64,000 bases of DNA from Chlorokybus atmophyticus (taxonomy: Eukaryota; Plantae; Mesostigma and Chlorokybus algae), in the NCBI GenBank assembly GCA_009103225.1, contig RHPI01002161.1, positions 173,044-237,043 on the forward strand. Direction: 5' to 3'. The first letter of the stretch is position 1, and each line of letters starts with the position of its first letter. Of this stretch, positions 1,898-23,100 are shown piece by piece. The notes beneath the pieces are model-generated. The model was given only the letters and a program-made list of their open reading frames with translations. It did no database searches and was not told where the DNA came from. A program made the translations under genes and the position numbers.

Positions 1898-4800
1898 CGC
1901 CACCACCACCGCCTCCCTCGCCCCCGCCCCTATTGCCTTCACCGCCTCCAACACCACCTCTACCACCTCCATCCCCGCCGCCTCCTCCTCCTCCCCGTCC
2001 TCCGCCATCACCTCCCCCACCTTCTCCACCTCCAAAACCTCCTCCTCCACCACCAAGTGTCAAAGCTCCAGCTCCGGCTCCACCACCTACGCCTTCTCCG
2101 CCGCCTTCACTTCCGCCACCTGTGTGGTTATGTCCCGCGGGGTGAGTAAGTGGTGATATGCTACATTATATTGGCACATGTGAATTTGCTTGACTAAAGT
2201 GACTTACTGTTGTTGCATGTGCAGTTACAACGTCGCTGCGACCATGTTCCTCATTACCGACGACTGGTGTCAGTACAACATTACTTATAACGCTCCTCAA
2301 AGTGGACACTACTTAGCTGTAATTTGGACCAAAACCAAGGAATCAGGGCGGAGCTACAGTGCACATCAGAGGTTTGCTTCTTTCCAACCACCTGATGAAT
2401 GCATGTACTGGCTACTATGTGTGCCTGATAATTAACATGGCATTTATGCACATGTAGCCGTTGATAACTCTGACAAGTGGGAAGTTGATGCCTTTTCGTC
2501 CAATATAGTGGTTGGCAATACTATGAAGTTCCATTTTGTCGTCGACGACAGCTTCGGCCTCACGGAACATGATGCTTCCGACATTACCTTTACGTTCACT
2601 GAGGTTTTTTCACCTCCAAGCCCACCGCCGCCAGTCGCACCTCTGCCATCGGAGGAGTTCGGGGGCCGCCGGCGCCTCTTAAGCATTCAGCCAATCACGA
2701 CCCATGTGGTTGACATTGTGGCTGCATCCGGTCACTACGACATTGAGTTCACTGGCTTGGTGGCAGGTTGGTACCAAGTGTACATTATGGTGCGCGGTAT
2801 TTTCCTTACAGGCATTGCCATGCCTCTTATCCTGCATGTCTCATGTGCTTTACCAAGCCCGCCTTTGCCCCGTCCTCCTCCGCCAGCTGCCCCACCCTTG
2901 CTGCCACCACCGAGCCCGTCACCGCTTCTGCTCCCTCTCACACAGGAACCATCTCCACCTCCTCTATACACGACGTCCCCACCACCACCACCGCCAGTTC
3001 GCTCACCACCTCCTGTACCACCCTCATCTCCGCCACCATCCACCTCACCTCCTCCGCCACCCGTGTCCGTACCGCAAGCCATCAAGCCCAACAACGCCAG
3101 CTTACTTACCACCGACGTTGTGCTCACACCAGCGCAAGCATCCCTCTCACTCTGTTAATCATTGGGCGCAACAGTTCAAACTTGCCAAACAGCGGTGGTG
3201 TCATCTAGGCAGTGCTATCACCAGGAGGTTTAATAGCGTTGTCCTTGCTGTACAACACTACCGCTGGCTTCTACGGCATTCAGTTCACCTCATTGACAGC
3301 AACAGGCATGTACCAGTTCACACTCACCATTGAAGGCAGCACTTTCATGTCTGGAACTTTTACCATCATCGCGGGTTCCGCCACTGCAGCTACATCTAAC
3401 ATTGAGATGCAAAGTCAGTACACTGCCGATAAGGTAGCAACACTGAAGATTGTCACCAACGATGCTTGGGGCAACCGCGTGCCACCTGCAAACACGCCAG
3501 CTTCCACTTTGAGTGCAATTTTCTCTCCGGCATTTACCTCCAGCAGCAGCATTAGCCCATCACCGGATGGCAGCTTCCTTGTGACGTTCACACCACCATC
3601 AACAGTGAGCGGCTACAGCGTAACTGCTTTATTAAATTACAGCACCATCGGCAGCACGAGCTTCACTGTCTCAACAATCTCCGCGGCCAGCAACTCTGTC
3701 CTGTTCGGCATCGGCTTAGCTGGCGGTGTTGTGGGCAAGCCGCAGTACGTCTTGATTTCACCCATAAATGGCTACAGTGTGGTTGAGAACTTCACCATCA
3801 CGCTCACGCTGAACTCAAGTGTCTCTTCAGCATCCTTGCCTTTGCCTCTGGCCTGTTGTCCAACCCGCAGGGCATCGGTGTATCTTCTCCTACAACGTGT
3901 CGGTTGTCGGCACCTATTTGTTGAAGGTAGCCATTGGCGACAACCTTGTGGGGGACAGCGCCATCAACATTGCCCATGGTGGCAGATGTGGTCACCCCCG
4001 CCGCTTCTAGCATCATCGTGCCGACATTGACAAATTACACTGCCGGCGCAGGCATAAATGCCATCGCACTTGTCTTGAAGAATGCGTACGGCAACCCCAC
4101 AACAGGCACTGGCATCAGTGTGACGTTCACTTTTTGCACCATCACTGTCTTTGGGACCACCTCCAAGCTGCCAAGCTGTGAGTGCGGTGATCACAATCAG
4201 CGGCACGTACATTGTCAATGCGTTGCATCAAGGCATGCCTTTGATTAGCTCCGGCAAGACGATCACCGTGATCCCGGCCAACCCGTCCCCTTCAGCTTCC
4301 ATTGTCAGTGGGTCCGGCACGAGGCACTGCTGGCAACATCCTCAGTGTCAATGCGTATGTATTTGATGCTTTCGGCCACGACATCGCCGTGTCTGCGCTC
4401 GATGTGAATGTGGCGGTGGTGAGAGCTGCCAACAATGCTACTACAGCCACGTCCGTCGCCACACCTCCGCCAACTGGCGCATACATCACCAGCTTCACAG
4501 TTGAAACCGTTAACGTTTATAACATCACTGTCATCGCTGGCAGCGTCCAGCTGGCCACTTTCAACATCAGAGTGTCCACGGTGGCTGTCAATGCCAGCAA
4601 GACTTTGGTTATTTGCAGCTCAATGGCCGGTCAGTCCAGCAGCTTCATTGTACAGCTGCGTGATCAGTACCTCAACAACGCAACGGCCACAGCAACGACC
4701 TTCTTCGACGGATCCTCCCTTGTGCTGCGCGGCGTGTTCACCACTGTGGGCCTGGGCGTCGCTTTGGCCATGACGCCAAGCAGTGCGGGCATGGTTGTCG

Positions 4801-7515
4801 CCACGTACATGTTGATGACTGCCGGCATTTACGACATCAAGCTTCGCATTCATGGTCAGACCATTCCAGAGCCGAGTATCCCTCTCTCTTTCACTGCCAA
4901 TGTACCAACCGCAGCCACATCCACCATGACAGTCTTCGGCCTCCCGACAGCTGGCCACGTTGGTTCCAACCTCCACGTTGGTGTCAGTATTAAAGACCTA
5001 TCCAGCAACGTTGTCTCTGGAAACGCGGTGAGTAAGACTTGTTCAACACAGGTTATTGCATGCTGATCTCCTTCCTATATATCTAACTTGAGTAACTAGT
5101 TTGCTGTTTGTGTCCTCAGAGCATTTTGACGGTTACAACGGCAATTATCTTCGGAGGTGGTGTCAACGCTGTTTCTACGCCCGTACCTGTCACATCCACA
5201 TTTAACAGCACCCTTCAGGCACACAATATCAGCATGACACCCACCCACGCCGGCACTCTCACCGTGAACATGCTCATCTCCGGCACTCCTCTTACCGGCA
5301 GCCTCTTCTCAAACTAATCCAGGCGGGCGCCACCTCTGCTTCACACTCCACCCTCTACGGCTCCGGGTTGTCCGGCGGCGTGTTAAACAACTCCGCCTTA
5401 TTCATCATAAGTGCGTTTGACATTGATGGAAATATGAAGGTTACCGGCGGTGACCCCTTCCGTGTGGCAGTCACTAATGCAGCCGGCAACAAGGCTGCCA
5501 CAGTTGTTGACAATAAGGATGGGAGCTACATTGTGACGTACACGCCCACGGGGGCTGGCACCATCTCTATCGCTGTGACTCTGCTGGGACTCTGCTGGGA
5601 AGCGCTGTGGCTAACAGCCCTGTCACAGCGACTGTGTTTGAGACAGCTGGCGTCATCGACTATGCACGCACGATAGTGACGGGTGCTGGACTGGCTGGTG
5701 CTTTCGCTGGAGATCCAGCCAGCTTCATCATCATTGCAATGGATGCAAGTTCCATCAACAAACCTCTGGTGGCGCTGTCTATCAAGTCACGTCTGAGCCC
5801 GCGCTAGAGTTCATCGTGACTGACCAGCAAGACGGCTTGTATACCGTCAACTATACCCCACAGATCGCTGGCATCTACAACCTCACCAGACTTCACTGGC
5901 ACCATCAAGACTGCAAGCGTAAGAGTCATACCCGGGCCAACCTCCAATAAGCACTCCAGCCTGGTTGAGGACTTACAGCCAACGTACACTGCGAGTGAAG
6001 CCTTGTTAGTTGGTCTTAAAACTCAAGACTCGTTTGGCAACAAGCAGCAGTACTCAACCGCGTACCCTGCCGATGATGTGTTCGTGACTGCAACCAACAT
6101 TGCCGGCAGCAGTGTCGCCACTGGCACTGCAACACTCAACAACGGCCAGTACCTTGTCAACGTCTCCATTAAGGAGCTAGGCACGTTCTTGTTGAGTGTC
6201 CTCATTGGCAGTGTGGCCATCACAGGCAGCCCATTTCCCATCACAATAGTTGCTGGGCCAGTATCCCCAGCTGCCACGACACTGAGCGTAGTGATTGGAG
6301 CAGCTCCTATTGTTGCCGGCAGTCCGGGCAGTATACCACTGCTGGCCCGTGACGAGTACGGTATCCCAATGAACAGTGTGGCCCAGTGCGAGGCCACCCT
6401 CATTAACACCATCGATGATGCTGTCAAATATCTGGACTGCGACCTCCCTTCGTTGACCATCAGCTACTCTGTAGAGAAGGCTGGCACATGCGAGCTTGAG
6501 GTGCGGGTGTCAAGCAATGAAACAGGCAATTCGGCACCGATCAAGGGCAGTCCATTCGCCGGCTTCAAGGTGGTACCGGCAGATCCCGATGTTGAGAGCT
6601 GCACAGTTAGTGGCGATGGCTTGGATTCTGCTATTGCGGGCGCCGTCGGCAACAGCATCCCCGTATCCGATACGGGAAGCTGCCAAGTCTTATACACTGT
6701 CTTCAATGCCAGCACGGCTACTGGCACCATCTTGTATGACGGAGTCATCACCAACGGCCAGTTCACAGCACAGATTGTTAGTATTGCTGGCCCGCCTGAC
6801 GCAGGGCAGTCCATTGCCACGGGTTCCGCCCTCAACAGCGTCGCCATTGCGGGGGAGAGTGTGATTGGATTCATCAGCCTGCATAATGTACAGGGCATTG
6901 CCATCAATATCAGCTATGGCGCTGACTTCGTGTCTGCGCTTGTCGCGCGTGACTCCGACGGCCTGCAGGTCTCTCAGCAGGTTGATAACAATGACGATGG
7001 CATGTATACTCTGAGCTTCACTGCCGTCAGCACGGGCGTGTACTCAGTGAGACCTCTCATTGATGGTGCCGCGCTCGGAGGCATGAACAAATCCTTCACC
7101 AACACCAACATGACGTGCGTCACGACAACCGCGCAGGTGTCAACTTCTCCTGGCAGCTACATTTTGGCTGGCTCGCCAATGACAATTACAATCACACCGA
7201 TTGATAGCTGTAGCAATGTCCAGGACAGAGTGGTCAGCAACGCGGACTTTACAGCATTGATTTTTCTTCTATTGCCACGGGCCAGTTGAATTGGCATGGA
7301 ATGCAAGCGCATCCCTACTGGACGCCAAGACGCTGTCCGGACTTTACAGCATTGATTTTTCTTCTATTGCCACGGGCCAGCCAGTTGAACTGGCATGGAA
7401 TGCAAGCGCATCCCTACTGGACGCCAAGACGCTGTCCGGCTCAGTGACACTATGCACACCGGGCAAGTATGTTGCATCCGTCACGCTTGAGAACATCAGC
7501 ACTTCAGAACATTAA
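1898..7515 (+). pseudogene. Large Pro-rich (SPPP-type) filamin/Ig-like repeat protein, frame-disrupted; 5' end lies in the gap
   Basis: Filamin-type motifs: VVDNKDGSYIVTYTP, TDQQDGLYTVNYTPQIAGIYNL, VDNNDDGMYTLSFTA..TGVYSV, GSPF. SPPP tracts at 1898-2120 and 2600-3070. GT-AG introns (2142-2224, ~2372-2457, ~5029-5120). Reading frame switches repeatedly, with an in-frame TAG at 3206. Confidence 0.8.
7243..7440 (+). repeat. Tandem duplication (~95 bp unit, second copy has an extra CCAG) inside the filamin-repeat pseudogene
   Basis: CGGACTTTACAGCATTG...GACGCTGTC occurs at 7243-7337 and again from 7338. Confidence 0.9.
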
Positions 7516-7521
7516 AGGGCA

Positions 7522-8351
7522 ATGCTCTTGCTTCAGAGCAGGGCGTGCGTGCCGAGTCATCGCCATTGAATATGAAAGACTATGCCATAAGACCTTACCT
7601 GCAGTGAGTGGACTTGATTATGGCATAATGCAAAGGTGTCCGACAACAAACGCAAGTTTGTCAAGACCGTTATTGCCTTCTTCGCCGCCAGCAACGGCAT
7701 CGTCGCAGGCAACCTCGTGAGGCCTTCTACGCGTACCGAATGTTCAACGAGACCGTGCACTTCAACACGTACAGCCTGATCATCGATACCTTGATGCACG
7801 ATGCAACAGAGCAGCGGCGCCTGTTCACTGCCATAGAGACGGACCATCCCATCAAGAAGGCGGGATGGGCGCTGCGCTGTATGGCGCCAGAACAACCGTT
7901 CGCCCACCGCCTCATGGCGTTCGCCTGCTCCGCAGCGTTCGCGGCCCTATTCTGACTGAAGAAGCGGGGCCTGTTGCCCCGGGTGACTTGCAGCAACGAG
8001 GCTACCTCCGCTTTCAAGCCGGACGCTTTGATTGTACAGGAAATTGTCTCGAGTGCAGTGGAAGCCGAGCTCACATTCGTCCGCGAGCCGCTACCTCAGC
8101 ACCTCGTTGGGATGAACGCCAAGACCATGGGGGAGTACGTGCGCTTCGTCGTACAGGCTGCTCGTCCCCAATTCGGCTACGAGTGCAAATACAGCGCCAA
8201 GAACCCCTTCGATTTTATGGAGGCTATAGGGTTGCAGCGCAAGACGAGCTGTTTCAAGAGGAGGATTGGGGATTACGCCAGGGCTTGCGACGTATCAAAG
8301 CCGTTCGACATGGTGTTCAATATTAAAACAGAAATGTTGCTATGTGGTTGA
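7522..8351 (+). pseudogene. Ribonucleotide reductase small subunit (class Ia R2), probably viral, inactivated
   Basis: RKFVKTVIAFFAASNGIVAGNL; NETVHFNTYSLIIDT; KKAGWALR; F*LKKRGLLP..TCSNE; MNAKTMGEYVRFV; KNPFDFMEAIGLQRKTSCFKRRIGDY. The ASDG aspartate reads N, the EGIFF and RDEGLH iron-ligand segments are missing, and there are stops and frameshifts. Start is approximate. Confidence 0.9.
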
Positions 8352-8408: not shown

Positions 8409-8612
8409 ATGGAAGCGGATCTTGTTCACATGTGTTTCAAAACCCCGTGCATCATATTCTTTGTACAATGCCTCCGAGATGCTTTCCATGGTATGAAGAG
8501 CATGGCTCTCGCGTTGCTCGGGCTGGGGTTGGTCAAGGGTAGCAAGCAGAAGACTCTAGTCAACACGTACCAATACCTGGCGGAGCAAACACTCAGTTTT
8601 TCGGCAAGCTAA
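8409..8612 (+). CDS. Small hypothetical ORF within the viral block (67 aa), may be a remnant
   Basis: Fills the gap between RNR and the L1R-like gene; ends 5 nt before the ATG at 8618. No recognisable family. Confidence 0.3.
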   Translation: MEADLVHMCFKTPCIIFFVQCLRDAFHGMKSMALALLGLGLVKGSKQKTLVNTYQYLAEQTLSFSAS

Positions 8613-8617
8613 TCAAC

Positions 8618-9404
8618 ATGTGCGAGTCCCATGGCTCGACCACCCTTGATCAAATAGTTGCGGCCGGCGACACCGCCACGCAGCTGAAGTGCTTGCAGGT
8701 GGTACAGAAGTGTTTGTCGGGCCTCACGGGTGCCTCCTTGCAAGCGGCCCTCGATTCTTGCAAGGTCCACGACAACTCTATATCCATCTAATGTCACGCA
8801 GACCGGCACTTGAATCATAACCAGTTCTTGCCACATGACCAACGCTATGACCCAAGGCCTGGTCAACAGCTTCACCAATACGGTGCAGCAGAAGATGCAG
8901 TTGTCCACCGACGTGGTGTCCAACGACCGGTTCAACGCCATGGCGTCCGTGCTAGGCGGCAAGAAGACGACATTTACCGTCGACAACATGGACATTGAAA
9001 ACGTCCCAAATACCATGTATACGGTGGACAACGTCAACAAGTTCCTGAGCGAGATGTCTCAGAGCATGAACCAGCAGGTGTCCACTGGTTCTGCGACAGC
9101 TGCACCATTACGGACATTGTGTAGCAGACGCAAATCAACGCTATGGGCGAGATGGTCGTGTCCAACAACTTTTTCCAAACCGCGGTGGTGCAGTTCGCTC
9201 AGACGCTGTCGCATAATAGCAGAACGAAGAGAAGGGGATAATCTCGTCTCTGAACAACCTGTGCAGCGAGCTAACGAGCCCGTGGGTCATGCTGGCGGTG
9301 ACATGCATCGCATGCCTAGTGCTCGTTGTGGTCCTGTTGTACTTCAAAAACCGGGGCGGGGGCAAGACGTCCTTATTTCTTGCGGTGCATGTAGCGGCTC
9401 ATAA
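8618..9404 (+). pseudogene. NCLDV L1R/F9L-like (myristoylated) virion membrane protein, frame-disrupted
   Basis: Reconstruction across frames: MCESHGST...ISI/NVTQTGT*IITSSCHMTNAMTQGLVNSFTNTVQQKM...CDSCTITDIV*QTQINAM...GIISSLNNLCSELTSPW-MLAVTCIACLVLVVVLLYFK-NRGGG. This is an N/Q/T-rich ectodomain with sparse Cys and a C-terminal TM helix. Codon 2 is TGC, one base from GGC (Gly2 myristoylation site). Confidence 0.65.
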
Positions 9405-10823
9405 TGGTGGTGGGGGAAACGGTTTTTGGGCCGTTCGGGGCCAAGGCGGCTTAGGCGAACTCGCACGCCCTCATCAGCTGCAATCTCAATTATTACGTAA
9501 CCGCTGCGGCGGGCGTGTCTGGAGACGCGATTGATGGGATCACGTTGGTGACGTGCAAGAACGCCATGACCGGCCATGGTGACTATAACCGACACGACTC
9601 TGAGCACGAGCACTGGTGGCAAGACGCCCACGAGCTTCATGTGCCCGACGGGCTACGACGCCCTCAACTGCTTCCTGCTTGGCGCCGGCGACGATGTTAT
9701 GTTGCTCCGCTCGGTGTGCCGCAAGTGGAACAGCACCGGCCTTGCCGCATTAAACATGCCCAACTCTGCGATTGGCAACAAGGCCGGGATGAACTCGCAG
9801 GTGTGCGCCGGCGCGAACAATGCAATCTATGCGCTGGACGGCAACGCTCGGGACCGCAAGGGGACGCTGGTTAACAGGTGGTTCCTTTGCAGCGACTTGG
9901 GCCCGGTGCGGCGCTTCATAAACAACACGAGCGCTCAGGCCGCGTGCTCTGGGGTGGACCAGTCGCAGGAGTGCAAGGACGCCAAAAATTAATTAGGCAT
10001 GTTTCAATGCCCCCACACTATGGCCACGTGGTGCACCAAGGCGAATGCGGCCACCGACCCTTGGTGCCAGCGCTATTACAAGATTGTAGGGTTCGGCGAC
10101 CCGGACCTGCAAAGGCGCTGATCACGGGCGACGACTTGTTGTGCTGGCAAGGCGACAACTGGGCGGCCAACGCCATGTGTCAGGACGTGTGTTCCTTCCC
10201 GGTCGGGGACAAGGCGTACGGCTCTGTGGTCAAGGAGCGCTGCAATTGAAAGTCCTATCGGCCTGCAGCGGTGATAACTCCACCAGGCTGGATGCGTGCT
10301 ATTGCCCGTGCCAGGAGAGCGACATTACGGCGTTCGTCAAGATCCGAGAAGTCATGCCCCAGGCCATTTTCAACAATAAACCCCAATGCTCCATTAAGAG
10401 TGCGTCGATTTGGATTACCAGATGCGGACGTCGCAGAAGCGAGCTGCTTGTCAGGTCAACCAGTACGTTATGGCGAACGACCCCAATGACAGCACCATTC
10501 ATGACGTGTTCACCACATGCGACTCCACTGCCAACGCCTCAACTGATGGCAGTGAATCGACAGGCAGCAGCGCTGCTACCGCGAGCGCTGATGTGAGCCA
10601 GACGATGCCCTCGAGCGTTGCGACGCCGCAAACGCCGGTAACGCCGCCGCCGCCACCAACAACGACGCTGATGAGCTTGTTTGCGAGCTGGAAGTTGTGG
10701 CATTGGGCCTTGCTTGCCGGCATCAGCGTCGTCATGCTGATTGCAATGATATTCATGCCCCAGAATCGGGGAGGTCGCAACTCTGAAGGCGGCCACGGCA
10801 ACGGCAACAACGGTGGGCGGTGA
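9404..10823 (+). pseudogene. NCLDV A16/G9/J5-like Cys-rich membrane protein with a lectin-like N-terminal domain, frame-disrupted
   Basis: WCTKANAATDPWC and CQDVC repeats, then DACYCPC-x20-KPQCSI/ECVDLDY...AACQVNQ...IHDVFTTCD, a S/T/P stalk and a C-terminal TM (LWHWALLAGISVVMLIAMIFM). Stops at 9452, 9990 and 10247 plus frameshifts. Confidence 0.7.
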
Positions 10824-10839: not shown

Positions 10840-11337
10840 ATGTCACACGCCTGTCCTGTCCAGCACCCTCATGGACGATCGTGTTGATGCCTAGTGGCAG
10901 AGGGACTAGAAGGCGGGACTGGTCTGCAATGTACCAGTCTTGCGCGCGTATGCTGGTAAACATCTGCCGCAGGGTGATGGGTGAAGTTGAGCACCGCCTT
11001 GTTCAGGGCGCTGACCTGGTCCTCCAGGAAGTCAAAGCGTTGATTCCCTTTTTTTTACGTAGATCGAGCGCATGAGGATGGCGAGCACGGTCTCGTTCAG
11101 CCTGCCTATCATAGCACATGATGTCCCGCCTCAGCTACCAGCGTGTAGCACGTTTTTCGCCCCGAAAAACGCCACGATGATGACGTCGGGGGAGCAGCGC
11201 GTTGCATGCAGGGCGGAGACGACGCCCAGCTCTAGCGCTTTGGCCTGCTAGTCCGGCGCCGCGCTCGACGGCGGCGTCGTGCGGATTGGTTGCACTCGGT
11301 TGTACGACATGAAGTCGAACGCGTCAATCATTATCAT
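10840..11337 (-). pseudogene. Unidentified intronless ORF remnant in the viral block, convergent with the A16/G9-like gene
   Basis: MIMIDAFDFMSY...D*QAKALELGVVSALHATRCSPDVIIVAFFGAKNV...LNETVLAILMRSIYVKK/QRFDFLEDQVSALNKAVLNF/FTSIRAQDWYIADQSRLLVPLPLGINTIVHEG. Protein-like across two stops and frameshifts. 3' end approximate. Confidence 0.5.
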
Positions 11338-11482: not shown

Positions 11483-11485
11483 CAA

Positions 11486-12025
11486 TGCTTACATCCGGTC
11501 AGCTTGCCCTTCACACAGGAGTTGAGAGTCGAAGGTACTATGGGCTGAGCACATGGACTTCGGACTTAGCCAGTCGAGACGTGTTGGAATTGTGCAAATC
11601 AGGCTGCTGACCAAGGTCTTGGGAGAATCAACGCGGCTTGATGGATACGTAGCCTTAGCAGGCGCGGGCAAGCTGTTCTGTCTAGACAACAAGCTAAGCC
11701 ACGCATATATGCTTTATGGTCGAAGGTACCATGGAAGAAGCGCGTGGACTCCAAACTTGGCAAGACATTCGAGTTAGGACGGACTCCGAAGCAGATGCTG
11801 AGTATAGCCTTGGGAGAAACCGCGTAGCTTGGTGGATACGTAAGCACAGCAAGCGTGGCCTAGCTTGTTGTAAAGCTCTGGTTGTGAGCTAGACAGCGCA
11901 GCTTACAGAACAGCAATTGGCTGAGTATGCTTGACGCGGTGCTTGCTAATGTAGACGTGTATAGAGACTGGCGGGGTATAAAGCCCGGACTTGTTGCAAT
12001 GAAGAAAAGAGGTCACGATGTAGCA
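11486..12025 (+). mobile_element. Solo LTR-like element
   Basis: Begins TGCTTACATC and ends GATGTAGCA (near-inverted TG...CA). TATAAAGCCCG at 11977-11987 resembles TATAAAAGCCCG of the 1-1414 units. Internal repeated blocks (GTCGAAGGTAC, TGGATACGTA). No matching TSD found. Confidence 0.5.
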
Positions 12026-14484
12026 TGTGTGCGGATGCTATGGCAGCGGTAGCATTCATGCTCGCGTTGTTGATGTTGTCGGCGTGTCACCTGCATGTAT
12101 GTATATCAACAGCGTATAATTGGTTAATGCACATCATCTGCTCTACACAAGTACGCCGATCGACCGTTGCCTTCTACCATCGATTTAAAAATCTTCAGAT
12201 GTTGAGGGATGCGTTCAAGTCTCACCTGTTACCCATTTTGTCTTCGCCACACGTGGCGCCAACACGCACTCGATACGAGGCAACAATGGTTATTGATAAT
12301 ATTGCAAATGCTAATCATTCCAGTTGACACACAAGTTGACATGTCGGCGCCAAAGCGCATTGCTTTTTAGCAGTATATTCAATTCCTTTACTGCAGTTGT
12401 AGTTAACACGCGCGGCATTTCGAAAGTCAATTAGTATCCACACACATTGTGAGCACAAGACATGATCGTTGCAAATCAGCCTACGCTTACCGAGGCTGCT
12501 ATTGGGTTTACCCATCATACCAAGCTTTGTTGTGCAAATCGCACTTTTGTGAAGATACCCGTTTCTGATGCATCAGCGTCTCGTGCGCACTACACTCTCC
12601 AAACTCGTATGGCACTTGAGGGTTGAAACCGATCTGTGGCACCTCAAACCATTGCCATCATTCAGATAGCCATAATACTACACTAGCCCATGAGGCACAA
12701 GACAAACAGCAAGACCAAGGGAAAGCGAACAGAACAAACTGACAAGAATTCGAGAGCATCAGCAACTGTACATAACAGTGCATGCTGAGAACATGCAAGG
12801 AGTACCAATTAGTTGATTACTCTAAGAGCACTTGCAGTCAAGTTGGTAGCAGACACATGCAAGTGGCAAAAGTAGCAACCATGTACCATACATTTGAACC
12901 TTGTAACCTGTGCGCACACAATACAAAGAGTCCTTATTCTCAGCTACTGTTACAATGAGGCATGCAGGTCTAGTTACACGCACGAGGCCAGTTCAGGGAA
13001 GGGGTGAGATGCAGACCTATTTACATGGACTGGTTGTGGGGGCTTGTGTGGCTTTTCTGGCCTGGACACAGCGAAATTGCGCTTGCGCGCTTGGCTAACT
13101 CCTCACACGCTTGAACGCAACAGCAAAAGCCGCCTGCGTCATGTAATCCAGTGCCTGGGACAACAGCACCGTTGCGGGCGACAACAGTGACGCGGTGAGT
13201 CGCTCAGGCTTGTGAGTTGGCAATAAATGCTGACAGCATATCGGTTGACCTCTAGATAGAGCAAACGCGCAGTGCAGGCAAAGTCCTCACCTTTGCTTGA
13301 CTGAGCATTATTTGTCAGCAAATTTGCTGCTCTGCTTGCATTCCTGTATGGCTTCACGATAATTGTATGCGCCGAAGATTGTAGCCACAGCCATAGCAAG
13401 CATAAACATCCACTGTGGCATTCTTGCCGCGTGCAGGCTAACCGGCACCAAACTGCTCGCTCAAAAGGGTATGTGAGACCACACATGCACGGCGGTTCAT
13501 CAAGCCAGCATTGGCAGCAGTTGTAGGGTACTTGCCTAGTGCCGTTAAGCAGCTACTTGACAAACGCTGTAACAACAGCAGCCAAAATCGGCAGGCGGCG
13601 CTGAGCTTGTAGCCAAGCGCTGCTCACCCTGTCCGCCTCCCCTTTCCGCTCCCGAGCGCCCTGCCTCCTCCCCCGCCACCTAGGCTCACAACATCCGCCG
13701 CCTCCACTAGGTTACACCACGATAGATTGTAAGATGCGCAAGACCGCACCCTGCACAACTGACAAACTGGTAATATAAAAGGTACTGACCCAACCGGCGC
13801 TATGATTGCTCGAGCGTCAAGTTGCGATGGTTGGGTACAATCGGTCAAGTTCGGTCAGTTTGTAGTTTCGGACGATGCTGCCCGACCGCGCTCAGCTATG
13901 CCCACAGCAGTGCGCGAAAAGCTTTGAATTGCGTTTGATGCTCGCTGCGGTATCTATTGTTTAAACTTGGTAAGTGCACACCATCGGGAAACGGTCACAT
14001 GTTCGTTTACGCACGGTACCTACGCATGCAGGGTATCTACGCGGTTTCCATGCATACACACGGTATCTACGCATCTGTTGGTGCACACGTGTACAGATGT
14101 GTTGGGTGTTGGAGTTGATAAGCGGTATCAGAATTCCTCTGATGCCATATCGTGCTATTAATAATCTATGTGGCTTATTCGTGTGACAGGTGGTGAGTGG
14201 ACAGGCAAGACGTGTTTGCCGGCTACCCTCTGGTGCTCTGAGAGCATTGTCAGTCAGCATCAGGCGTATCAGGTATCTGTGTGGCTTATTCGCGTGATTC
14301 GACAAGCAGCAGTACGTGTTCACCGGCTACCCTCTGGTGCTCTATGCTCTCTGAAACCTAGCGACCAAGCGACATACGATACGCACGGCAAGGAAACGCG
14401 CAGTTGCGACAACTGAGGTTTTTGTGGGCGGCGGGGTCGGCGGCGGGTGTTGGGGGTGGAAGGAGCGCCGGCCGCCTAGCTGTT

Positions 14485-16171
14485 ATGGACAACGTGTGGC
14501 AGGATATCAAATCTGCGGGTTCCGCCGTTCAACAATTTAACAAAGGTATGGTCTTGGGGGAAGAGNNNNNNNNNNNNNNNNNNNNNNNNNNNNNNNNNNN
14601 NNNNNNNNNNNNNNNNNNNNNNNNNNNNNNNNNNNNNNNNNNNNNNNNNNNNNNNNNNNNNNNNNNNNNNNNNNNNNNNNNNNNNNNNNNNNNNNNNNNN
14701 NNNNNNNNNNNNNNNNNNNNNNNNNNNNNNNNNNNNNNNNNNNNNNNNNNNNNNNNNNNNNNNNNNNNNNNNNNNNNNNNNNNNNNNNNNNNNNNNNNNN
14801 NNNNNNNNNNNNNNNNNNNNNNNNNNNNNNNNNNNNNNNNNNNNNNNNNNNNNNNNNNNNNNNNNNNNNNNNNNNNNNNNNNNNNNNNNNNNNNNNNNNN
14901 NNNNNNNNNNNNNNNNNNNNNNNNNNNNNNNNNNNNNNNNNNNNNNNNNNNNNNNNNNNNNNNNNNNNNNNNNNNNNNNNNNNNNNNNNNNNNNNNNNNN
15001 NNNNNGTGGGGAAGTTGCCACATTCCCAAAGTGCTGTGTCGGCGGCAGTGGTTAATGTGCGTCTGTGCGATCAGGATGTGGCCAAGTTGTCGCAAGAAAC
15101 CATCGAAGAGAAGAGCGCCATCTGGTGCAAGTTAATCAAAGCTGCCGTGCGTGTGCTGTTTGCCGCCGAGCGAAAACTCGCACTGCAGGTAGCTTACATG
15201 TACAGGTTGTGATGGCGTTTGGGGGAGGAGCCGCGCTGAGGTGCAAGAACAAGTCTTTGTCGTGCACGGCCTACCTTGCAGCCGACACACATTGACATTG
15301 CTGTGCGCGCCTTTTTCACCTTGATGTCCTATCCGCAGTCATTCAGTGGGTGGATGGTGAAAAGCAGGACGACGCTGCCTCGGCGACCGCCCGTATTTCT
15401 CTTATGCAAAATATCGAACAGGAGGCGCCTCTGGTGGCATGTTTCCTCCAGCAATGCCCCAAGGCCTTGGTTTTTGTGCTGAATGACAACAGCATGTACG
15501 AGCAGATCCAGTTGATTCTAAGAAACGAGCCTGCCCAGCTCTGCCGGTTGTTCCTTCATAGACAGGGACACGGCAACACTATCCAAAAAGCCCTGGACAG
15601 CTGGTGGAAATGCGGTAATGACGGCGACCTCACTATCCGTTTCTGGGCCCCAAGGTGCCAGAATGCCGTGAAGGTGTTGCCCTTCGCTCGTACGTATGGC
15701 GCTCACACGGGCTCGCTCTACTGCCTTGCTGACTTCAACACAACCTCATCCCACAGAGTCGAGCTTGTTGCGATTAAGCTCAAGCCGTGCTCTGGCTTCA
15801 ATGGCGCTAAACCCCAGGTGCAGCTGCGCCAATCTGTTGTAGACTGTTGAGTTGCACTGATAAAGATATTTAATACCGAGTGTCCATTCATGCAGGTGTT
15901 CACAATGAACATCGGGTGGACGATGCCCGGAGTGACAAAGGCAGCGGTGAGTCTCGGTGTCTGTATGGGTGGAGTCTTGGGCGGCCTTACTTCTGCTGTT
16001 GTTGCTGCACTTGCTTTGGCTTCCAATCCCATTGGTTGGGGTGTTGGAGCGGCATTTATCGGGGTCTTAATTGGCCTTCCATTGGGGTGGAGATGGGGGA
16101 GGTATAGTGGGAACCTGCTGGCCTGCGACTATCACAAGGAGCACCCGGCGCCGCTATACACTCGTCAATAA
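14485..16171 (+). CDS. Orphan ~270-aa protein with a C-terminal Gly-rich hydrophobic hairpin; three exons (14485-14545, 15339-15817, 15896-16171)
   Basis: Splice phases fit: AAAG|gtatgg...ccgcag|TC and CCCCAG|gtgcag...atgcag|GTG. This joins MDNVWQDIKS...FNK to VIQWVDGEK... and VFTMNIGW...GVCMGGVLGGLTSAVVAALALASNPIGWGVGAAFIGVLIG. Intron 1 spans an N-gap, so extra exons are possible. Confidence 0.6.
15006..15221 (+). repeat. Identical 216-bp copy of Exo70 genomic sequence 21984-22199
   Basis: Base-for-base match including intron and exon parts; abuts an N-gap. Confidence 0.9.
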
Positions 16172-20124: not shown

Positions 20125-23100
20125 ATGCCTGGCATGGTGGCCGGCGGCGGTGGTGGGGATGGCGGCGGGAGCGTGGTCATCGCCAGGCTGGAAGCACGCA
20201 GGGCGCACATCCGGGAAGGCCTGGCCAAGTCTCAGGTAAGCAGACACCAGGCTGAGCGGCAGCTTATCCGCCAAGCTGGTTTGTTGCTGTCTTACTTGCT
20301 TGCAATCACCTCCCACTTATGACGCAACAACGGCATCGCTCAACACTCAATCAATACTTGGCGTACACAGAGAGTAGATATGTGCCCCACAATTCTGGGC
20401 TGTAAAATGCGTTTGCAGGCAAGGCAGTCCAGTAGTGAGTGTACCTAACGTACTTGCTATGTAAGAGACATCAGCTTTTGCGATGCTACTAGCCACCCAG
20501 CAGAAAATAGGAATTTGTGCACCCTACCGTTGCATCGTTATGATATCATGCTGTGGTCGCAACCTGTGTGCTACGATCAGCGTAATCATTGGAACGCTAC
20601 CAATGTGCTCTGCTGTATTGCTTTGGAAAACACGCGCACGCACGCGTGCGTGCGCGTGTTTGCGCGTGTGTGCAAGCCCTCCCTCACAGTATGTGATGCG
20701 GGTATCCATCCAGCTTGAATGCACTTGTGTGCGCATTGACATGCTGTCCATGCACATTGCACTTGGGCTACTTACAACACAAGCAGACACCACCGCCATT
20801 GGGCACCTCCCATGTTGCGCCTCACGCGATGTATTGAGCAAATCATCCATAAGCGTTAAGGGCCAGTGTTATCTAAAGTGTTGTTTTTCATGCGTGCTCT
20901 TTCACACACCACCATGCTTGCATTGAATTGTACATGTAGGCGTGACTGCGTCAACTGATTGCGTTGCCACAGGCCATCACTGACCAAACCGAGGAGCTGC
21001 TCAAGCGCTTCAGTGAACATGTCGCTGAGCTCGAAGCCATTATGACGCCAGTGCAGGTACGCATGCTGTAGTCACATTACTTGCTTTGTGCACTGAAGTG
21101 TGCTTATGAAGTCTGATCAACACTTGCATCGCAGCGGAAGACCAACCTGCTGTTGACCAAAGCGGAGAACATAGAGAGGTCTCTTGCAGCTGCGGCAGAA
21201 GTCTTGCACCAGTTTGATGTTTCAAGACAGGTATGTATCACATAAGCATCACAAGACCTGATGTTAAGTTCGACACCACATGCCGAACTCATTACATGCT
21301 GGGTACAGGTGGAGGATGCCATTAATAGGGGCCCTCGGGGTGACATTGACGCCTATCTGCGATTGGTCAAGCGCCTTGCGGCTGCAGTCGCATTCCTGAG
21401 CGACGAGCGTGGAGGCCGCAGCTTTCGTGACGCAGGCATGAACATCTGATGGTCTTGTGCGCACATGCCCACAGACGCGCACGCGAGCTGAACTCGTGTA
21501 AGTTATGCAGGTGATGCGCTGGCGCATGCTAAGAGTCTGCTCGTCAAGGCCATCGCAACATGCGAGGAAGAGATGAAGGGGATACTATCCAAACATGCCC
21601 GTGTCATTGACCCGGCCAAGGTAAGGAAGTTTCTCCCTCTCCCCCCAGCAGTTGTGGGGACCAGCACTCTTGCAATCACACTTTGTGTTGGCATCATCTC
21701 AGCAAACCTGTCCCTGAGAGATTTGCCTTGCACAGCATGTGCCGTTGAGAGTTTTCTGTTGTTCACTCATTGCAGGTTGATGAGGCACTTGCGGGTGACA
21801 CGACAAAAGAGGCACAGGAGTTAGTGGCCCCATTCGCACTCCCGCAGCTGCGTGCACTCGTTGGCGCGATGCTGCAGGCGGGACACGCTGCGTGCCTTGG
21901 CTCCTTCCGCGATGCTCGCATTCCCGCCCTTGAAGGCAACCTCAAGCGGCTCGGGATAGACAAAATCTCTTCAAGAGAGGTGTGTGGGGAAGTTGCCACA
22001 TTCCCAAAGTGCTGTGTCGGCGGCAGTGGTTAATGTGCGTCTGTGCGATCAGGATGTGGCCAAGTTGTCGCAAGAAACCATCGAAGAGAAGAGCGCCATC
22101 TGGTGCAAGTTAATCAAAGCTGCCGTGCGTGTGCTGTTTGCCGCCGAGCGAAAACTCGCACTGCAGGTAGCTTACATGTACAGGTTGTGATGGCGTTTGC
22201 TTGTGCACCCATTTGTTGATGTGTGCCCATGCACGCGCGTGTGCGCGTATGTATGTGTGTCTGCGTGTTTCCGTACAAGTGTCTGCGTGTCCAAGAGCAA
22301 GTTCAAGTGGTATACGTGCTGCAGGTTGTTCGGGAGAAGTTTGTGGGGCCTGTGTTTGCTGAGACCATCTCATCCTCAATGAACAAGCTGGTGGCGTTTG
22401 GGCTTGCAGTAGCAAACGCAAGATGGTAAATTTCAAATCTATATGGCCGGCTGTTCTGCTTGAGGCAGCAATGTATTAACTGCTCGTTGCTAACCAAATA
22501 CAGCGTGCCCGAGAGGCTGTTTTTGATACTGGAGATGTTTCACACCCTGCAAGGAGTCATGCCAGAGCTGGAAGTTATGCTGGCAGGCAAGCATGCTCAG
22601 GTGACGACCTTTTTTCAGGGCCTATCATTATGTCATCACTATGTGGCCATGGAATTTGTTGGTCTAATTGCAGCTTTGTGCCAGGCCATGGCGGTGGAAA
22701 CGAAGAGCCTCCTTTCTCAACTGGCAACTTGCGCTCGGTCAACTTTCTCTGAATTTGAGGAGACAATCAGGTATAGCGAAGCCATTGCATGATGATGCAT
22801 GGGTTGGGTTGATTCAACCCAACCCATGCATTATCATGACTTGTATATTACTCTGCAGCAGTGCTTTGAAACGTGCCAGCTTTTGCATAACATGTTTGCC
22901 TTTCTCTCAATTACAACAGAACTGAATGCATGTTGCCATAGCGAGGCCTCAGTGTGAGCCATGGCAGAGGTCAAGAGCATCATTGCAAGGGTGCAATATC
23001 CTGACAGCTGGTTGTCACCAGGCAGGACTCCAACAAGTACATGCTGCCGGATGGCACGGTGCATCCGATATCCTCGCACGTGGTCAACTACGTGAAGCGG

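Follow-up and report, generated by a model that had tools for sequence, protein, structure and literature searches.

A likely giant-virus relic in the alga Chlorokybus atmophyticus holds a dead coding stretch laid out like a poxvirus-type fusion module

A 64,000-nt stretch of the Chlorokybus atmophyticus genome (contig RHPI01002161.1, positions 173,044 to 237,043; hereafter the window) contains, at 8.5–10.82 kb, a genuine but dead coding stretch of roughly 2.3 kb that is of membrane-protein type. The stretch belongs to an insert of about 4 kb that is likely a broken nucleocytovirus relic. We lean towards reading its 5′ half as L1-like and its 3′ half as A16/G9/J5-like, both as very distant relatives of these families, on the basis of layout and not of a sequence match. 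Taken together, the relic is real, and its having held a fusion module is plausible but unproven. Streptophyte algae are the group that gave rise to land plants, and we know of no giant virus isolated from them.

The coding stretch was delimited with a model of position-specific base use at codon positions, trained on pieces distant from the junction between the two halves. A Viterbi path through this model remains coding on the + strand across 8588–10620, with no non-coding gap, and changes frame nine times (at 8587, 8789, 9084, 9221, 9374, 9571, 10111, 10257 and 10399). These switches are the ones first chosen by eye from a three-frame reading, sliding windows concur with the Viterbi frames, and GC3 in the coding frame is mostly 0.65–0.9. 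Six stops lie in frame, at 8610, 8811, 9122, 9452, 9990 and 10247. Read through with X at every break, the stretch gives 765 positions with three hydrophobic peaks (Table 1). Coding probably begins upstream of 8618 (at 8493 or at 8588, according to the penalty set on a change of frame), and the left limit of 8618 set by a first-pass annotation of this DNA is therefore probably too far right. Of the two co-oriented membrane-protein genes described there, the + strand coding and the membrane helices stand, but as pseudogenes and not as open reading frames. Intact functional genes are ruled out by the 15 breaks and intron-containing host genes by a coding path free of non-coding gaps; frameshifts from sequencing error as the sole cause are disfavoured, though not completely, by the presence of six in-frame stops as well. 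One sequencing run (X1), which may be the assembly's own source sample, is identical to the window over 8632–8997. No contig from that run extends 31 letters beyond any break in both directions, and the sequencing runs listed as holding the stretch include no RNA runs.

Table 1 Features of the insert and its right edge (window positions; KD19, peak value on the Kyte–Doolittle scale over 19 residues)
Feature	Position	Strand	Basis
RNR small-subunit pseudogene, intronless	7618–8330	+	Pfam PF00268, E 3.3e-13 and 6e-9
L1-like ectodomain candidate, ~250 codons	8529–9282	+	Codon model; start 8493–8618
Membrane helix 1, then short basic loop	9283–9339	+	KD19 3.03
Weaker hydrophobic segment over a frame change and TAATG (9402–9406)	9373–9430	+	KD19 1.75
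Cys-rich outer region: predicted β-rich part, then short Cys/Trp helices	9431–10263	+	Codon model
J5-like cysteine pattern (candidate)	10264–10520	+	C, CxC, Cx4C, C, Tyr for seventh Cys, C
Pro/Ser/Thr stalk (61 residues, 51%), terminal helix (10704–10760), 20-residue tail	10521–10823	+	KD19 2.29 (helix); stop 10821–10823
Another candidate broken gene, last in the insert	10920–11337	-	Six-frame reading
High-copy host repeat, right edge of the insert	11485–12063		Contig depth in run X1 up to 135, against 1–5 elsewhere

The insert sits between a broken Ig/filamin gene (2.2–7.5 kb) and the high-copy repeat, which is LTR-like. Its RNR pseudogene is damaged by a frame change near 7720, a stop at 7953 and an internal loss; the best homologues are 44% identical, and the top named one comes from a viral metagenome. 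Because the coding stretch lies behind this intronless pseudogene and within an intron-rich green-lineage genome, the ~4 kb are likely a giant-virus relic, with intronless viral-type genes set in host DNA as in an endogenous nucleocytovirus element. The coding path also has a gene density of viral type. The frame that closes the insert matched nothing in Pfam or in the reference loci. It may resemble the P8/DUF5761 type of small capsid-associated protein known from large DNA viruses, an identity that, if right, would help to place the donor. Hallmark core genes (capsid, polymerase, ATPase) were absent from the 199 open reading frames of at least 95 codons that were scanned. No contig of run X1 spans either edge of the insert, so its contiguity with host DNA relies on the assembly.

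The rest of the window is of host type where Pfam identifies it, with exon-sized pieces of Exo70 (22.4–24.2 kb), kinesin (27–29 kb), EF-G (44–46.5 kb) and a DEAD helicase (56.6–57.7 kb), as well as TEDC1. Among solved structures the Exo70 exon is nearest Arabidopsis EXO70A1 (4RL5, E 4.6e-26; next 1.9e-9). Together with TEDC1 and the GEX2-like gene described below, this suggests a flagellated host of the green lineage, likely a streptophyte alga. Identical 216-bp copies of an Exo70 exon, at 15006–15221 and 21984–22199, just after an N gap, probably reflect either an artefact of the assembly or a duplication of recent date. The Ig/filamin gene (2200–7515, + strand) is long, GEX2-like and built of Ig/filamin repeats, with a few introns but numerous changes of frame, and a segment duplicated locally at 7243–7439; it is a host-type pseudogene whose end is the start of the viral insert. 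The window opens with a tandem repeat of ~700 bp (1–1415), and an intron-poor + strand frame at 15296–16170, with a Gly/Ala-rich hydrophobic tail, has no Pfam match.

Direct searches with pieces of the window named neither half. Pfam returned no L1R_F9L, Pox_G9-A16 or DUF5857 match, a PDB sequence search nothing relevant, and exact look-up 0 of 7; hhalign of the read-through against family members stayed below a probability of 1%. Scans for close relatives gave 0 of 2 and 0 of 3 candidates on viral contigs and 1 of 73 on genome contigs, the latter a 9-mer shared by chance with a bacterial protein. The middle piece matched none of 827 candidates (longer proteins only) among 5.8 billion proteins, four repeat proteins among 1.84 billion, and Atlas clusters at 0.75–0.77 that gave no lead. 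Family searches in virus records, mostly run with no positive control, found PF03003 in 0 of 12, PF19175 in 0 of 4 and PF02442 in 1 of 3 and 0 of 13; reference sets A6 (0 of 5) and A5 (0 of 12) were run without controls. Single-sequence models of a 100-residue piece of the 5′ half (pLDDT 42) and of the 9431–10263 piece (pLDDT 45) gave no E below 0.001 with Foldseek against viral structures and no meaningful fold match, and the best VIA fold comparison (Z 4.1) led to generic β-barrels. Both models were poor, and the second covers the region upstream of the J5-like pattern. The profile tests have little power between subfamilies, and true distant members were missed by several of them: a true ASFV-type A16/G9/J5 member matches neither Pfam nor the PDB, and the J5 profile does not recognise six DUF5857 members (0.1 to −27 bits).

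As direct searches gave no result, we collected true family members as references by motif scans. The panel, checked against the PDB and Pfam, comprises five L1-like proteins, six of the DUF5857 type, a single ASFV-type protein and a non-redundant set of 32 J5-like domains. Its L1-like set (A6) matches iridovirus VP88 (8HIF, E 3.2e-26) and PF02442 (E 2.7e-6), and its J5-like set (A5) matches vaccinia J5 (8WT5, E 4.4e-4). An L1-like gene adjoins an A16-like gene in four reference loci (L223, L229, L235 and L513) and lies less than 2 kb from one in a fifth (L215); the two candidates of the window would likewise be neighbours, provided that both labels are right. In L223 and L258 a gene for an RNR small subunit is found up to ~4 kb from A16-like genes, as it is in the window. 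On two of the giant-virus contigs, three tandem A16-like genes are immediately followed by a three-helix L1-like gene (L223:4327–8950 and L229:5689–10459), and L235:1600–7469 carries A16-like and L1-like genes back to back, with a second A16-like gene of 697 aa and repeated domains upstream. Kao et al. 2023 find F9/L1 and A16/G9/J5 together in 68 of the 73 carriers other than poxviruses, frequently as neighbours (PMC10100723).

The 5′ half has the layout of the F9/L1 family (PF02442, NCVOG0211), for which we compared vaccinia L1 (1YPY), ASFV pE248R, iridovirus VP88 (8HIF) and mimivirus L323. An N-terminal ectodomain rich in Asn, Gln, Ser and Thr (40% in the candidate, which bears four frame changes and three stops) precedes a C-terminal membrane helix or helix hairpin, the first cysteine lies near residue 30, and an A16-like gene adjoins. 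A composition-plus-helix filter for this layout, post hoc in that it was defined after data inspection, passes the 5′ half and only 6 of 2088 locus open reading frames, five L1-like and one ASFV-type. The top three Atlas clusters for this half are Nucleocytoviricota (0.83–0.87), a score below the trust level that we treat as a lead only. In contrast to F9/L1 members, the candidate is broken and has no sequence match: its L1 profile score was equalled by 285 of 1000 shuffles and by 170 of 2000, and its glocal L1 z was 0.0, against 17–25 for each of the five true members when withheld. The L1 profile represents one broad subfamily with five sequences, and a true member scores only 25 bits on PF02442, so the test has low power. 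The ectodomain also differs in length (250 residues against 186–203, or ~50–60 residues longer than in the five L1-like references) and has no evident α4–α5 cysteine pair, as no two cysteines lie ~37 residues apart at that place (cysteines at 187, 190 and 244, in an unreliable alignment of a decayed gene). Its start is broken, so that no intact Met-Gly start is seen, a feature that two of the five references lack too.

The 3′ half was compared with the A16/G9/J5 family (PF03003, PF19175 DUF5857, NCVOG1122), represented by vaccinia J5 (8WT5), ASFV pE199L and mimivirus R557. It shares with these the series CxC ... Cx4C ... C ... C on the C-terminal side, and, downstream of the J5-like part, a Pro/Ser/Thr stalk, a C-terminal membrane helix and a short tail; the stalks of reference A16-like proteins span 13–125 residues, with 36–76% Pro/Ser/Thr in six of seven. 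The Cys-rich outer region contains an alternative start, ATG at 9576, and the J5-like pattern is split by the frame change near 10399 into pieces of ~45 residues. Vaccinia J5 has its cysteines at 10, 19, 21, 41, 46, 64, 69 and 89 (PMC10100723). In the window, five of the eight fall within the strict spacing ranges of the 32 members and seven of eight once the family spacing is widened by 2, a relaxed test that is post hoc, defined after data inspection. Among 2000 shuffles, 3, 14 and 19 attained seven of eight, as did 2 of 2849 decoy open reading frames, both with at least 36 cysteines; among eight held-out members, six score 6 and two score 0. Unlike the collected members, the 3′ half lacks the CWY motif, has Tyr at the seventh cysteine position and has two cysteine gaps 1–2 residues beyond the range. 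It is broken and shows no profile similarity to PF03003, PF19175 or A16/G9/J5 members, its score on the A16/J5 profiles being equalled by 614 of 1000, 358 of 2000 and 211 of 2000 shuffles.

The first-pass labels of L1R-like and A16/G9-like genes are consistent with the layout, which fits both families, but no sequence or fold search shows them. Every profile and fold test being null, and Cys-rich, Ser/Thr-rich membrane proteins being common in giant viruses, these could be Cys-rich surface proteins, of the virus or of the host, that are no kin of L1 and J5 and resemble them in composition only. We regard this as a serious possibility but do not favour it: each layout is rare among decoys, both occur together in the usual order of the family, and the same tests also miss genuine distant members. 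The L1-like and A16/G9/J5-like reading, which we keep, leaves two arrangements at the junction. A stop/start overlap had been described there, and TAATG is indeed present; its TAA, however, lies in frame 1, the first helix in frame 2, and codon use does not support frame 1 over 9346–9401 (log-odds −6.3 against −2.2). A two-gene junction therefore needs one extra frame change, as does a one-gene reading. With one further event each for a split at 9404, a split at 9576 and a single gene, a fused L1–A16 gene is as simple as two genes. Such a gene would encode an L1–hairpin–A16 protein of ~765 residues with three helices and both ectodomains on one membrane side, the weaker hydrophobic segment serving as second helix of the hairpin. 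Coding is continuous over 8588–10620, this segment crosses the junction, helices 1 and 3 are each followed by basic residues, and the TAA is out of the helix-1 frame. A helix hairpin (second helices of 1.69–2.22 after helix 1) and an additional outer domain are also seen in three of the five L1-like references. We nevertheless consider a single gene rather unlikely, as TAATG falls precisely at the junction, the second ATG at 9576 coincides with another frame switch, a split at 9404 gives ~290 and ~470 codons, which are ordinary family lengths, the genes are separate in all references, and the second segment is weak.

The proposal that the donor came from outside the usual algal-virus groups finds no direct support. 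The RNR pseudogene sits on a long terminal branch (4.17) whose position is not informative, in a quick search of 86 rows with sequences more than 80% alike dropped, and so cannot place the donor; published streptophyte-algal inserts were grouped with Phycodnaviridae by Gallot-Lavallee and Blanc (PMC5294986). It may well be that the donor was an ordinary algal type (Algavirales/Phycodnaviridae-like) with L1- and J5-like genes too divergent for BLAST surveys, a reading that we place just short of even. The Klebsormidium, Entransia and Interfilum inserts are among those grouped with Phycodnaviridae in that source, and the two halves do not match the collected pox, irido, asfar or Pimascovirales-type members, but low-power searches found no algal-virus homologue (5′ piece, none of five bins; middle piece, one Cys-free chance-level match from 14 records; J5 profile, 0 of 12). 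A fusion-entering donor from outside the algal groups, Pimascovirales-like as in moss, is possible though more doubtful. The hosts of known L1/A16 carriers are animals and amoebozoans (PMC10100723; bioRxiv 10.64898/2026.09.08.750034), and moss inserts are described as sister to irido/marseilleviruses or Pithoviridae-like; against such a donor, there is no placing marker, RNR being a long branch, and no similarity to DUF5857 Pimascovirales-type proteins was found. Like the Physcomitrium/Selaginella (PMC4083422) and Klebsormidiales (PMC5294986) inserts, the relic is a short decayed viral cluster beside repeats in a streptophyte-type genome. Those inserts were found through core genes, whereas the window insert shows none among the frames scanned, and fusion genes are absent from the accounts of them in the available portions of these papers.

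On the virion of the donor, a disulfide-held J5-like domain on its stalk would have stood, with the L1-like ectodomain, outside the inner viral membrane, in which both proteins, or one three-helix chain, would have been held by their helices. By likeness to vaccinia L1 with A16/G9/J5 and ASFV pE248R with pE199L (PMC10100723), the pair may have merged that membrane with a host membrane and so released the core. Around 4 kb would later have been inserted into the green-lineage genome and decayed by indels and stops; the proteins would have no function in the alga, and the decay would resemble that of silenced moss viral inserts (PMC4083422).

The background given with the first-pass labels, including the absence of L1 and A16/G9/J5 from the usual algal viruses, agrees with Kao et al. 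2023. Both families are missing there from isolated algal viruses, algal giant viruses are considered to have lost the fusion module three times, and a term search of supplement 1 gives no alga or moss row, its Phycodnaviridae rows being medusavirus and clandestinovirus (PMC10100723). A literature search that left most subscription journals outside its scope found no report of F9/L1 or A16/G9/J5 in an algal insert. As the relic is short and dead, has its proposed kinship from layout only and carries no donor marker, it counts as a lead and not yet as a result. If the kinship is true, it would be genomic evidence that a virus of a walled green alga carried L1 together with A16/G9/J5, contrary to the three-loss view, and would bear on membrane fusion by algal giant viruses and on the use of these genes as host predictors. 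That a streptophyte-algal giant virus entered through a poxvirus-type fusion machine compressed to one L1–hairpin–A16 polyprotein is a bolder idea, and an improbable one. Were it true, the two core families would be workable as a single chain, algal viruses would have retained rather than lost fusion machinery, and the fused form would serve as a minimal model for the entry complex of poxviruses.
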